DNA from: a plasmid | Sequence record: CP063550.1 | Length of the DNA: 64,000 nucleotides | Direction: 5' to 3' (one strand) | Shown here: positions 48,401-60,400 of the stretch, in pieces | Numbering within the stretch: the first letter of the stretch is position 1 | Layout: every line of letters begins with the position of its first letter | Position numbers: made by a program

Positions 48401-51400
48401 AAGAGACGCAATAAATTCTATCGAAGTTTACGCACTGCCTCTACCACGATTAAAGGCATGGAAGCCATTCGAGGATTATATAAGAAAACCCGAAAAGAAG
48501 GCACTCTCTTCGGGTTTTCGGTCTGTACTGAAATCAAGGTATTATTGGGAATCCCAGCTTAAATCATAGATACCGTAAGGGATTTTATTCTTTATTTAAA
48601 ACTTTGCAACAGAACCCTTTTTTTGTTCTTCCTCTACTCTGTCTTTCAACATTGGAGGAAGTTTTTATTTCTTGAACTTGGTGCACTTCTAATTGCTTAT
48701 TTTCAGATGGTGTAATTGCTTGCTGCTTTTTCTTTGCTTCTGCTTCTTTTTTTATTTTGGCGAGTCCTTTGTTGTTCCCAAAAATATCAAGTCCTTTGAT
48801 GTCAGCCAATTACTCCACCTCCGCATACCAATTCTCGTGTTCTTCCAATTCTTTCAAAATACTGATAAATAATTCGTGGCTTTTGCGATCCCATTGTTTT
48901 AAGAGACCTTTCTTTGTCTTCTCCATCGTAATACCTGATCCGTCGTATCGTTTTAAGCGCGCATTTTTGAGTACAACATTTTTAATCAAATGTTCCCCAT
49001 AAATCTCTTGGGCTTGTTTATACATTTCCTGATCTACTGCGTCACCGCTTTCCAACATGAAAGGAATAACACCAGCAACATATAAATTTGTATCAAATTC
49101 TTTCACAAAAAAGTCCATATACTCAAGATATTGCATCGCATTTCTCATCGATTTTACTTGGGTCTGTAAGACGACGATTGCCCAATCCGCAATGTACATC
49201 GCGGATTTACTATATACAGAAATAGAAGGTGGGACATCTAAATAGATGACGTCAAACTCATCAAATAATGGTTCTAGCTTTTCTTTCATATATTTGAATT
49301 GGGATAATGAATCATTATATTGGTCTTTGATCCAATCATCATACATTTCAAAGGACATGTCTGCTGGAAGTATATAGAGGTTATTGATTACTTTATAGAC
49401 AGCCTCTTTAGGTGGAAGATTGTTTATCAACACGTCAGTCACAGTATTTTCGTAAACAATCGGTTCACCTTCTCCGCCTCCTTCTTCGTTAGTGAAGTTC
49501 ATATGCGTTAAGTTCATCACATCAGAAGTATTTCCTTGCATATCCAAGTCAATTATCAAGGTTCTTTTTCCTTCATTAACTGCTGATTCAAACCCTAACA
49601 TTTGCGCGCACGTACTTTTACCTACGCCACCTTTAAAATTACCGATTACATATTTCTTCGCTACCACGTTCCTACCTCTTTTCTTTTAGCAATATTCATT
49701 TGATACTATTATAACATATTTATTTTTAGTTACTACCAAAAAAAAGATATATATGTACTACCTTATAATTAATAAGTAAAAGGTAGTACATAAATAAGGA
49801 AAAGCTGAAATATATTGATTTATAGCTTTCCTCAAAGTAATGACGTTATTTAATTTATCGAGAAGCAGAGAATACTCGCGACTTTAGTCATGTAGACGAA
49901 TCAGATTTTCGATAAAAAAGAAGCCGTCCTTCTTAAGAACGACAACAAATCACTAGATTAATTTTTTCAACTGTTCATAAAAGTTTTCATGCGTTCCACA
50001 TAACAATACTGGAATAACCTTGTTTTCTATAATCTCGTAAGCTACTCTATATGTTGTGCCCGCATATTTGAACCCACTAGACCAAATACCTGATAAATCC
50101 CCAGTTTTTTGTTCACCCTTATATGGATCAATCGCAATTTCATCATAAATTAAATTCAAAAATTTTTCTTTCAATGGCTTCTCTTTTAGCTTTTTAAATA
50201 CTTAATGACATGTTTTGAAGGAACGATTTCATAAGCCAATTTCTGTTGCCAACTCCTCTTTAGTCATTACTTTAGAATTAGTAAGTGTATCTTCAGCAAT
50301 ATCTCTAAAGGAAGAATGCATTTTGTTTTTTCTATTCTTAAATTCTACAAGAATCTCATCTTTATCGTAGCCTTCTGCAATTATATCAGACAAAATATCT
50401 TCGCTAAAATCATAAAATTCTTTTTGTGGTTCAACAAATTCATAAAGAATACCATTCTCTACCAACTTTGCTTCAACTTCGACTCCATTAGGAACATTAA
50501 AATCTTTAGGTACTGTCAACATGATTGAATTGCCTTGTTTTCTTGTTTTTGTAATCATTTAAATCCCTCATTTCTAACAGTATGTAATTACTTAGTAAAT
50601 ACATTATACCACGAGATAATGTATTTACAAGTAATTACTGTGACTCGTAATGCGTCCTTGCTGAATAAATTTCAACCACGTGTTCATCTTCATCTACCTT
50701 ATAAACAACCCGGTGTTGTCTATTCAATCTTCTAGAATACCTACCTTCATGTGTAGGTTTTAACTTCTCAAATGATTGGGTAGGGAGATAGGGATCTTCC
50801 TTTAAAGTCTGAATAACCTTCTCAAATTGAGGTTTCAAATTAGACTGTTTGATTTTCTTTAAATCAGCTTTAGCCGAGTTTTTAATCATCACAGAATAGT
50901 TATTCATTATAAGTTATCCCAATCAATTTCATCAACATTAGTAAATCCACTATCATCTTTTTCTCGCTTACGAACAACACCCAAAGTGCCTATTTGCTCA
51001 AGTAATAGCGTTTCTTTGATTGCTTTCCAATCATCCAAACCAATAAGCACCGCATTATTTTCACTGCGCTCACTAATGATTTCAATTTCCGTATGATTCT
51101 CATTTACATCTTTCAACAACTTATAAAAATTTTTCCGTGCTGAGCTAGGATTTAAGACTGTTTTTGCCATATCTACTCCCCCTCTAATTTATATCTCCAT
51201 TCTAACGTACTTAATTAAGTACGTAAATTCGATTGTTTTGTTTAAATTGGAGTACCAAAACAGCATTGTAAAGTGTTATCCGTTTCCTTTATACCCGTGG
51301 TGCTAGTTAATTTTTTCCTAGAGGAAAATGTCTAAACATGTTGGTAAATCAACAAAAAAACGCATAGAGTAGTCTCAAAACTCCCAAGAAATGAGGACTA

Positions 51401-57400: not shown

Positions 57401-60400
57401 AACTTAAGCGAGTGAATCGACTCCTACTAGGAAAGTCACCATTAGGAAATAAGACGGAACAAACCGCTCTATACGTGGCTCTTTGGCTAGTATAGCCATT
57501 AATTATGCCCCATATAACACAAGCAATAATCACTGTATCGCGTTACTTCAGTTGATCAGTATTTCTTCGGTTTTTAATCTTATCTGGTACACAATTGTGG
57601 TATATGTTAGAAACAGTTCTCATAATTTCCTTGAATGTTATAAAAGTATCTGTATAATGTTCAGTATATTTTGATGAACGCATATGTAGTCCTCATTTCT
57701 TGGGAGTTTTGAGACTACTCTATGCGTTTTTTTGTTGATTTACCAACATGTTTAGACATTTTTCTCTAGGAAAAAATTAACTAGCACCACGGGTTCCTTT
57801 ATTTTTATTAACAAGTTTTATCACAGGCTTCATATATTTGATTATATCTTCATCTTCTACATAGATATCTGTTATCATTACGACATCTGTACTATTTCGA
57901 TTGAGTACTTTCACTTGATCTCCAGCATTGATTTTCCCTCTAAATCTTTTAGGAATGAACCAACTATACATATGATTAGCATCACCAAAATGTGCTTTTA
58001 TCGCATTCTCAGGATATAACTTATTCAATAGTTCATTCTTTTGAATTTTCAAAACTTCAAATCTATACTTATCATCTTCTGCTAATCTAAATAAATCTTC
58101 TAAACGCATGTTTTCTAACTGTAAGTTTTGAAAATCTTCCGGTATAAATTTTCTATATTTCATTAATAATGAACGCCCAGCCCGATTTATTAGAATCTGG
58201 CCATTTTGGTCATCTCTATAAAGAATTCCGTAACCCATCAACGCCAATAGCACACGTGACGTTTTGTTACTTGTAATATTCATATTTCCTTGATTACCTG
58301 AGGCAATGAAAGACTTATCTACTTGAATTAGGGTGAAATTCTCATTCAAATATGGTAGTAAAATTAATATATGTGAAAATCGAATCTTGAGATAGCTATT
58401 CCCCTTGAGATATTCACTGATACTTCTACTCAAATCATTTAAATTTTTATAATTATTTGTACGGAACGTATATATATCAACATCAGTTTTCTTTACATGA
58501 GAACTTATTCTAAAATGAAAAAGCCTACTCTCAGAAAGAATTGAAAAATAGATACTTTCAGTAGATACTGAAGATTGAACAAAATTAAACTTGTATCCTT
58601 CAGGCATAGCACTTTTAACAGTCTGCTGCATTAACTCGGATAATCTTTTGAAAGTAGTAATATATTTTTTACCAGCAAACCATACATATCTTTTTTCATT
58701 AAGTATGTTCACTATCTCTCCTCCATTAATTATATTTAGCATCAAATAGTTATTGTACCTATATTTTATCCCATTCCTTTTAAAACAAGAATACGTACAA
58801 AGTAAAATGTTGTAAATAGTCTAGCAGGGATGTATATTTTCATGTACCAACATAATATTTAAGAAGTTTCCCATAGATATATTGGACTTCCTCTTTTAAA
58901 ACACAAAAATAAATACTACCTTATTTAGGTAGTATTTATTAAAAGTTACGTCAATTTTGATTAAAAATATACTACTTGAACCTCTCATGAGTAAAGTCAC
59001 GAAATTTTTGGGAATAGAGCGTACTTGATATCTTATTTTTTCACTAATAGCAGTGTCTCTTATTCACCAAGCGATCCCCGTAGTTCCTACGGTTCTTAAT
59101 TTTTCTCTAGACTAATGATTGTATCTTTAGACCTTCGGCCATAACATGGAGCAAAATAAAAAGGTACTAAGTCTTATATATCAATCTTCGAGTAACCGAC
59201 GGTTAACAACCATATCGAGCGGCATTAATCACCCACCTGTAGAGGATGAGCGACTTTTTCCTAATTATTGTTAAAAGCCTAGTTTCATTTGTTTAGATTG
59301 GAAAATACGTCCTACAAGTATCTCTTTTTTTTCATGGTCGATCCGATAAAATAAGGCATAGCTTTTGCCGATCACGATCCGATATGTTGGGATATCCATT
59401 CCATAGATTTCGGAAACTTCCTCATGCATAGTTGGAAAATTTTTGGTTAGTTCTAAAGCCTTCTGGATCGCACCTACAAATCTTTTTATGCTGGCTGGAG
59501 AAAGAGCAAGCTCATTTTCCCATTCTTCTATTATCGTTTCAAGGCTGGTCTGAAAACTTTTAGAATAAACTAGCGTGTACTCTTTCATCTATTCACTCCA
59601 GCCGTATTTTCCGAAAGCTTTTACCATTTCAATTTCTGAAACTGTTAAACCTTTCTCAAAGTCTTGGAAACTTTCTTCAATCAATTTGCGATCGTGTTCT
59701 TTTGCTATTTGAGTAGTATCTAATATGAATAAGTTGCCTTCTTGTTTGGCTTGGATAATGTCTCCGCTTTTTAATCCAAGAGAGCTTGGAAGGATCACTC
59801 CCACGCTATTGCCGATCTTTCTAACCTTTAGTTCTTTTCCCATGTTATCACACTCCTTTTAGTTTTTGATGAATAAATTATAACATGTTATAACAACAAT
59901 TGCCAACGGTGTTTCTTAAGGGATTCCACTCCATATTATTATTGGACAAAATAAGCCACTTAGAACGCTGAAAACATATACAAACGATATCAAAATACGA
60001 GTGAACTACTCACCATACACTTCCGTTAACATCCATTTAACAGAATTAGGCAGAAGTCGCCCATCCTCTATAGGTGGGTGATGAATGCCGTTCGGTATGA
60101 GGGTTACCGTTGGTAACTCGAAGACCGACAACTAAGGCGTATTGCCTTTTTATTTTGTCCCATGTTACAATCAGTCTATACAAGAAATGAGTTGATATAA
60201 CATGGAATTAGATACAAATAATCATTCAGTATTTCTTCTTTATTACCACCTTGTTTTAGTAACGAAATATCGTAGACAAGTGATTGATGATGAAATATCT
60301 GATTATGCCAAAACTACTTTTGAAAGAATTTCAGAATCGTATCACATTACTTTAGTGGAGTGGAATCATGATAAAGACCACGTTCATATTATGTTCAAAG

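Follow-up and report, generated by a model that had tools for sequence, protein, structure and literature searches.

The 64,000-nt stretch of CP063550.1 analyzed here (hereafter the window) belongs to a RepA_N-type megaplasmid of Enterococcus faecium. It carries, near parA, a unit of 6502 bp, counted with its outermost inverted repeats, that has a toxin-antitoxin pair of the Axe-Txe type on its left and a hypothetical gene on its right. In this unit, two inverted copies of the insertion sequence (IS) ISEfm1 enclose 4422 bp of passenger DNA with three minus-strand genes, for an AraC-family regulator, a GH36 alpha-galactosidase and an MFS_1 transporter, an arrangement of two copies of one IS around passenger DNA as in a composite transposon. 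A distance of 122 bp separates the left IS end from the antitoxin start codon, with the IS on the upstream side. The features of the locus are as follows.

51285..51292, no strand: left copy of the duplicated TCCTTTAT, single-copy at the empty sites of pNB2354_1 and DO plasmid 3
51293..52332, plus: left copy of ISEfm1 (IS982 family), 1040 bp, terminal inverted repeats at 51293-51314 and 52311-52332
51404..52312, plus: transposase gene of 302 codons, broken by TAA at codon 47 (51542-51544); open reading frame (ORF) search and alignment with relatives
52315..53490, minus: MFS_1 transporter gene, 391 amino acids; Pfam MFS_1, 152.9 bits
53493..55742, minus: GH36 alpha-galactosidase gene (aga), 749 amino acids (WP_002314387.1); Pfam and PDB matches
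55839..56693, minus: AraC-family regulator gene (araC), 284 amino acids from the ATG at 56693; Pfam, RefSeq WP_002338109.1
56755..57794, minus: right copy of ISEfm1, inverted relative to the left, 1040 bp, also with TAA at codon 47
57777..58745, minus: target gene, hypothetical protein with a weak DUF5839 match; Pfam, annotated as an intact gene in empty-site plasmids
57795..57802, no strand: right copy of TCCTTTAT, directly outside the right IS end
50635..51170, minus: Phd/YefM-YoeB (Axe-Txe type) toxin-antitoxin pair, a neighbor outside the transposon; Pfam and RefSeq annotation

The unit, its duplication and its empty site

A repeat search returned a single inverted repeat of 1042 nt (51293-52334 and 56753-57794), which leaves 1040 bp per IS once trimmed to perfect 22-bp terminal repeats (ACCCGTGGTGCTAGTTAATTTT); the 2 nt beyond the IS come from a TA, palindromic by chance, at the inner flanks. 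The two copies differ at 2 positions, and a preliminary description of this DNA had correctly reported two near-identical, inverted IS982-family elements bracketing an MFS transporter, a GH36 alpha-galactosidase and an AraC regulator (Pfam agrees with all three assignments), although it placed the right copy (56745-57784) and the end of the whole unit (57792) about 10 nt too low. The left copy is 99-100% identical to the ISEfm1 copies of 529 plasmid records, in which the element occurs at 1439 places. With codon 47 read as CAA, the transposase scored 254.3 bits against NCBIfam NF033520 (IS982 family transposase, cut-off 130), and was identical to the RefSeq ISEfm1 transposase WP_002295743.1, so that the family assignment can be narrowed to ISEfm1, in agreement with the RefSeq name; Pfam gave DDE_Tnp_1 and DDE_Tnp_1_3. 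The right-hand copy in NZ_LR135358.1, annotated as "IS982-like element ISEfm1 family transposase" (WP_002295743.1), differs from the right copy of the window at codon 47 only. A length of about 1 kb and 22/22 terminal repeats starting with 5'-AC agree with the description of the family (PMC7335449), and the length, the AC-starting repeats and the 302-codon frame at positions 112-1020 match the listing of ISEfm1 and IS19 in the same source. There, an ISfinder-derived table gives ISEfm1 as 1041 bp with 302 amino acids, inverted repeats of 22/22 and a direct repeat of 7 bp, and lists direct repeats of 8 bp for IS982 and 9 bp for IS19, an isoform of ISEfm1, within a family range of 2-10 bp (PMC7335449); the window differs from this entry in reading as 1040 bp plus an 8-bp repeat, or as 1041 plus 7 if an ambiguous T is counted with the IS. 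ISEfm1 has been described as a solo IS inactivating ddl in VanD strains (PMC7335449, PMC4438569), not as part of a composite transposon there, and was found in all E. faecium isolates tested (PMC4438569).

The 8-bp direct repeat announced in the preliminary description is present as TCCTTTAT at both outer ends of the unit. On the inner sides, TACTCTAG and ATTACATA are unrelated to one another and to the outer flanks. The individual ISs are therefore not bordered by duplications, and a single one surrounds the whole unit. Among eight solo ISEfm1 copies sampled from other plasmids, five were flanked by perfect duplications (7, 7, 8, 9 and 9 bp) and three by none. Since solo copies duplicate 7-9 bp and the family 2-10 bp (PMC7335449), a duplication of 8 bp is normal for ISEfm1, and the proposed check on its length came out in favor of transposition.

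A megablast search of PLSDB with window positions 50900-58800 (7.9 kb) matched 545 plasmid records, 531 of them from Enterococcus; in 110, at least 80% of the query lay in one place at about 100% identity, and these full-context records were E. faecium megaplasmids of 150-300 kb typed as rep_cluster_893. An empty-site query, made by joining 600 bp of each flank through one TCCTTTAT, matched 299 PLSDB records, with a single unbroken alignment across the junction in all 60 records listed and with all 1200 nt covered at 99.3-99.8% identity in at least 17; the hosts include E. faecium NRRL B-2354, E. faecium DO (plasmid 3), E. durans, E. hirae and E. lactis. The target is thus found unoccupied: pNB2354_1 and DO plasmid 3 read ...GTGTTATCCGTT TCCTTTAT TTTTATTAACAAG..., with a single TCCTTTAT and an intact hypothetical gene, precisely the empty site (...GTTTCCTTTATTTTTATTAAC...) that had been predicted. 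In silico deletion of 51293-57802, that is, of the unit with one repeat copy, likewise joined the 322-residue ORF to its predicted native end, ...KNKGNG before the stop, whereas in the window this end reads ...KNKGTRGAS, two residues (NG) being replaced by the IS-encoded TRGAS. The 322-residue target protein had no match in NCBIfam. Three plasmids (NZ_CP131796.1, NZ_CP083474.1 and NZ_CP093954.1) have the axe-txe/DUF5839 region twice, once filled and once empty; the backbone segment has therefore been duplicated in them, perhaps via cointegrates.

An IS-free module with the same gene order, araC-aga-MFS, was found in E. asini (on a 525-kb contig) and in Amphibacillus sp. by a transporter scan that covered one genome per species, and no ISEfm1 was present at either module locus. 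The E. asini DNA is 95.4% identical to the window over exactly 52337-56755, and the homology stops at both IS junctions. The transporter gene retains the mark of the left junction, as the preliminary description had stated: the IS supplies its last five codons (TRGAS) together with its stop, four native residues are lost and the protein ends in ...RVTRGAS, compared with ...RVMTNL in pF39_1, which lacks the left IS, ...SIITN in E. asini and ...VTANV in Amphibacillus, each of 389 residues. Judged from their sequences, the target gene and the MFS gene are probably both still functional. The cargo is carried by 119 plasmid records, and in a separate search 110 carried it with the flanks seen here; ten further contexts recovered by exact protein identity, including contigs of 2.0 and 2.9 Mb, have identical junctions. 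Absence of the cargo from the empty site, a single outer duplication and an IS-free homologue ending at the junctions together form the signature of a composite transposon, and we are highly confident that the unit is a composite (class I) transposon that moved as one piece via its outer inverted repeats, in keeping with the earlier proposal of transposition as a unit into the 3' end of the target gene.

Cargo genes and related raffinose clusters

The 749-residue enzyme matched Glyco_hydro_36N (303.7 bits), Melibiase (537.3 bits) and Glyco_hydro_36C (70 bits) in Pfam, all above their cut-offs, and its PDB matches were GH36 subgroup I enzymes (E values of 1e-265 to 1e-216), including Lactobacillus 3MI6 and 2XN0 and Geobacillus AgaA/AgaB (E about 1e-251). 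Asp484 (in KWDMNR) and Asp554 (in SDD) align with Asp478 and Asp548 of AgaA (4FNR). The latter are a pair that we take to be nucleophile and acid/base, reportedly assigned by Merceron et al. in 2012, and on this assignment both catalytic aspartates of GH36 are conserved. Homologous structures align from residue 7 of the ORF (MNIIY...); the true start might be the second ATG, at 55724, while the first ATG (55742) has the better GGAGG spacing. The transporter start codon follows the stop codon of the enzyme gene by 2 nt, and because of this proximity the two genes probably form one operon. Every NCBIfam match of the transporter fell far below its cut-off, and its predicted substrate is suggested by the position of the gene. 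The regulator matched AraC_binding (84.2 bits) and HTH_18 (70.2 bits), giving it the N-terminal cupin-type ligand domain and C-terminal double helix-turn-helix of its family. Under the presumed control of AraC, the cargo would most likely let its host import and hydrolyze alpha-galactosides, either melibiose or those of the raffinose family. The label "raffinose cluster" used in the preliminary description needs qualification: it would follow from the GH36 enzyme, the unit having one alpha-galactosidase, an MFS_1 transporter of putative specificity and no sucrose-splitting enzyme, and the use of raffinose is a prediction.

This bears on whether the unit has been described before. A raffinose element with two alpha-galactosidases, AgaA and AgaB, that was needed for growth on raffinose is said to have been reported from an E. 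faecium megaplasmid by Zhang et al. in 2011 (Environ Microbiol 13:518). If the unit were that element, it would be nothing new, and the megaplasmid location and the presence of an alpha-galactosidase gene fit what a secondary citation conveys of it. As far as that citation describes the element, however, the unit lacks its pair of enzymes: a single GH36 gene is present in the unit and in the whole 64-kb window, and no second one was found either in the window or in a separate raffinose-type cluster of related megaplasmids (examined in NZ_CP011829.1, 189451-209619). The latter cluster comprises LacI regulators, two sets of ABC transporter genes, a GH36 gene, an alpha-amylase-family gene and gtfA, the gene for sucrose phosphorylase, and it fits the described element at least as well as the unit does. 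Its GH36 enzyme is 48% identical to that of the unit; a third GH36 paralogue, on NZ_CP014530.1, is 38.5% identical. The unit resembles such raffinose clusters of lactic acid bacteria and enterococci in being plasmid-borne, in its GH36 subgroup I enzyme and in having a dedicated transporter and regulator, but differs from the NZ_CP011829.1 cluster in its MFS_1 rather than ABC or GPH transporter, in its AraC rather than LacI regulator and in the lack of a sucrose phosphorylase or hydrolase. A literature search for ISEfm1 together with raffinose returned nothing, and with galactosidase only the IS982 family review, so that none of the papers accessible to the search linked this IS to either. We therefore regard identity with the element of 2011 as unlikely, though still credible.

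Alternatives to transposition and the proposed course of events

Arrival by homologous recombination, either by exchange via a solo ISEfm1 already at the site or by replacement of the segment from another replicon, has the abundance of ISEfm1 in its favor, since the 1439 places noted above provide plentiful portable homology, and the cargo alleles are mosaic, a clear sign of recombination in this region. In NZ_LR135192.1, NZ_CP032307.1 and pF39_1, a divergence of about 8-10% is confined to araC and the 5' third of aga, with the rest of the cargo and both outer junctions unchanged. If a circle bearing IS and cargo had entered by one crossover, however, the IS repeats would be direct rather than inverted; none of the records seen had a solo ISEfm1 at this site, and an exact 8-bp duplication around the whole unit is the signature of transposition. 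Recombination as the route of arrival is thus very improbable, and the mosaicism points to allelic exchange after insertion. Two unrelated ISEfm1 insertions beside genes already resident on the plasmid, with a repeat that matches by chance, have a practically negligible probability: although TCCTTTAT is not rare in this AT-rich window (five plus-strand occurrences in 64 kb), neither IS has its own duplication, the chance of an 8-nt match at the fixed pair of positions is about 3e-5 (per-base match 0.273 from the base counts of the window), and the empty-site plasmids lack both ISs and the 4.4-kb cargo while joining the flanks via one TCCTTTAT. Intramolecular replicative transposition, or inversion between independent ISs, was rejected, as the flanking repeats would then differ or be inverted, and the absence of the cargo from the empty site would stay unexplained.

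Several observations weigh against transposition of a functional alpha-galactoside module as a unit. Neither the 119 cargo-bearing plasmid records nor the ten contexts of exact protein identity include a second insertion site with another duplication, and because only one site was found, mobility rests on a single historical event; a donor in which both ISs retain their own duplications was not found either. In pF39_1, the cargo lies elsewhere with the right IS only and a rearranged outer flank. Cargo alleles vary by 5 bp at the right inner junction, the three divergent ones (loci L004/L005/L006, 8423-8427) having an additional ATATC, a difference for which a single capture is insufficient by itself. 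An IS of 1041 bp plus a 7-bp duplication would fit the ends equally well, since a T follows the right IS end at both right-end junctions. As to function, where the substrate is a prediction, the transporter reached only 22.1 bits against MFS_2 (GPH; cut-off 27) and is not of the GPH/LacS type usual for raffinose or melibiose. pF39_1 was also considered as a one-IS precursor, given its native MFS end, and rejected: its outer IS flank has no duplication and is followed by IS1678. A G follows the right IS end in pF39_1, which favors 1040 plus 8, and the transposition mechanism is identical under either count.

Under the preferred reading, that of a composite transposon, two ISEfm1 copies would have inserted around a resident araC/GH36/MFS module in some enterococcal replicon, one within the last four MFS codons and the other about 60 bp upstream of araC. 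Transposase would then have acted at the two outer inverted repeats and treated the 6502 bp that they delimit as one element, which would have entered TCCTTTAT, two codons before the stop of the DUF5839-like gene on a RepA_N megaplasmid, with duplication of 8 bp, and the filled site would subsequently have spread with the plasmid backbone. In both transposase genes Gln47 would later have become TAA, with gene conversion from one inverted copy to the other as the simplest route, after which the unit would probably have been immobile unless another ISEfm1 in the cell provided transposase. With regard to spread, a 239-kb plasmid labeled Lactococcus lactis (CP064340.1, from a snakehead fish) carries the backbone flanks, the cargo and ISEfm1, which would mean either intergeneric transfer of the megaplasmid or a mislabeled host.

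The proposed late loss of the transposase can be compared with relatives. Both copies in the window carry CAA to TAA at codon 47 (51542-51544 on the left; 57543-57545, in plus-strand coordinates, on the right), and neither encodes an intact transposase. Of the eight solo copies sampled, seven read CAA here; the remaining one, a copy of 1041 bp from Tetragenococcus, was not scored. Among the relatives of the unit, both copies read CAA in NZ_LR135192.1, NZ_CP032307.1 and CP096212.1, the left reads TAA and the right CAA in NZ_LR135358.1, and both read TAA in most others, as in the window. The other two differences between the IS copies persist alongside the common TAA. A short gene-conversion tract between the inverted copies would be the simplest explanation of the common TAA, and parallel mutation is a possible alternative. 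An ORF of 252 codons from a GTG at 51554 is still open and spans the whole region covered by the IS982 profile (residues 49-283), but has no obvious ribosome-binding site and is missing 50 residues at the N terminus. Because of the stop in both genes, the unit is probably non-autonomous, and since ISEfm1 is abundant in E. faecium, it might be mobilized in trans by another copy. In CP025392.1 (2.9 Mb) and PJEV01000002.1 (2.0 Mb), where the unit stands in its usual plasmid context, both IS copies are shortened equally (817 bp and 754 bp); integration of the megaplasmid, an assembly artifact or conversion between the copies could account for this.

The right inner junction also bears on the expression of araC, for which two further features were noted.

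56744..56772, minus: candidate hybrid promoter for araC, with a -35 (TTAACT) in the IS end and, after a spacer of 17 nt, an extended -10 (TGtAATAAT) on the cargo side
55776..55802, minus: terminator-like hairpin and T-run between araC and aga, just downstream of araC; consensus match only

The right IS does lie close upstream of araC, as first described, but at 61 bp from the ATG (56693) or 55 bp from a GTG at 56699 rather than about 50 bp. E. asini has the same 61 bp and the same -10, followed by unrelated native DNA farther upstream, which indicates that the IS replaced the native DNA upstream of TGtAATAAT. It is plausible from this arrangement that the right IS disturbs the araC promoter, as the preliminary description had suggested, and IS982-family ends can supply promoters (PMC7335449, PMC9771954). 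Promoter-like sites were not above chance in the scan overall (26 found, 30.6 expected), and the hybrid promoter is thus only a lead. In relatives, araC is independently disrupted: by ISEfa4 at the equivalent of 56631/56632 (at least nine cargo-bearing plasmid records), by an IS256-type element annotated as IS16 in another (L024), and by an internal deletion (L022); altogether, araC is disrupted in about a quarter of the cargo-bearing records listed. Such repeated disruption could reflect selection on alpha-galactosidase expression.

Two other genes of the window appear incomplete. The ORF at 14432-15397 matches APH(2'')-Ia in full and only the last 40 or so residues of AAC(6')-Ie, so that this bifunctional gentamicin-resistance gene seems truncated at its 5' end; it recalls the IS1216V-disrupted version known from these megaplasmids (PMC13436390). 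The IS200/IS605 TnpB ORF at 60781-61770 (329 residues) matches its model from profile position 59 onwards only and may be 5'-truncated or frameshifted, since the ISEfa4 TnpB of relatives has 382 residues.

Comparison with known transposons and significance

The unit resembles transposons of the Tn5, Tn10 and Tn9 type in its pair of ISs around passenger genes (inverted as in Tn5 and Tn10), in its one outer duplication with none for the individual ISs, and in the availability of an empty site for comparison. In Tn5 and Tn10, one IS copy stays fully functional. The unit departs from this type in its IS982-family ISs, in carrying genes for sugar use rather than resistance, in the nonsense codon of both transposase genes and in its one insertion site. 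Within the IS982 family it is comparable to Tn2007 of Acinetobacter baumannii, the example with a passenger gene that is usually named for this family, in which ISAba4 and the passenger gene blaOXA-23 are flanked by direct repeats; Tn2007 has a single IS copy (PMC9771954), whereas the unit has two complete copies and a metabolic cargo of three genes. The 2020 review of the IS982 family nowhere uses the word "composite" (PMC7335449).

A more far-reaching proposal would make the unit the first IS982-family composite transposon with two IS copies to be well documented, one that moved a commensal module like that of E. asini to hospital-associated E. faecium megaplasmids, with the IS end rewiring araC (the -35 of the IS coming to lie 17 bp from the retained -10 after the 5-bp junction change) and with the later araC knock-outs by ISEfa4, the IS256-type element and deletion reflecting selection in the gut on expression of the enzyme. 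As a whole, this chain of claims is doubtful.

The mechanism is that of a textbook composite transposon, and the value of the case is descriptive rather than conceptual. More than 100 public plasmid sequences already contain the unit, with automatic annotation. It provides a sequence-proven composite transposon of the IS982 family for which the filled site, the empty site and the IS-free source module are all available. Carbohydrate traits on these megaplasmids are thought to help hospital lineages colonize the gut, and the unit shows how one carbohydrate-use module reached widespread E. faecium megaplasmids.

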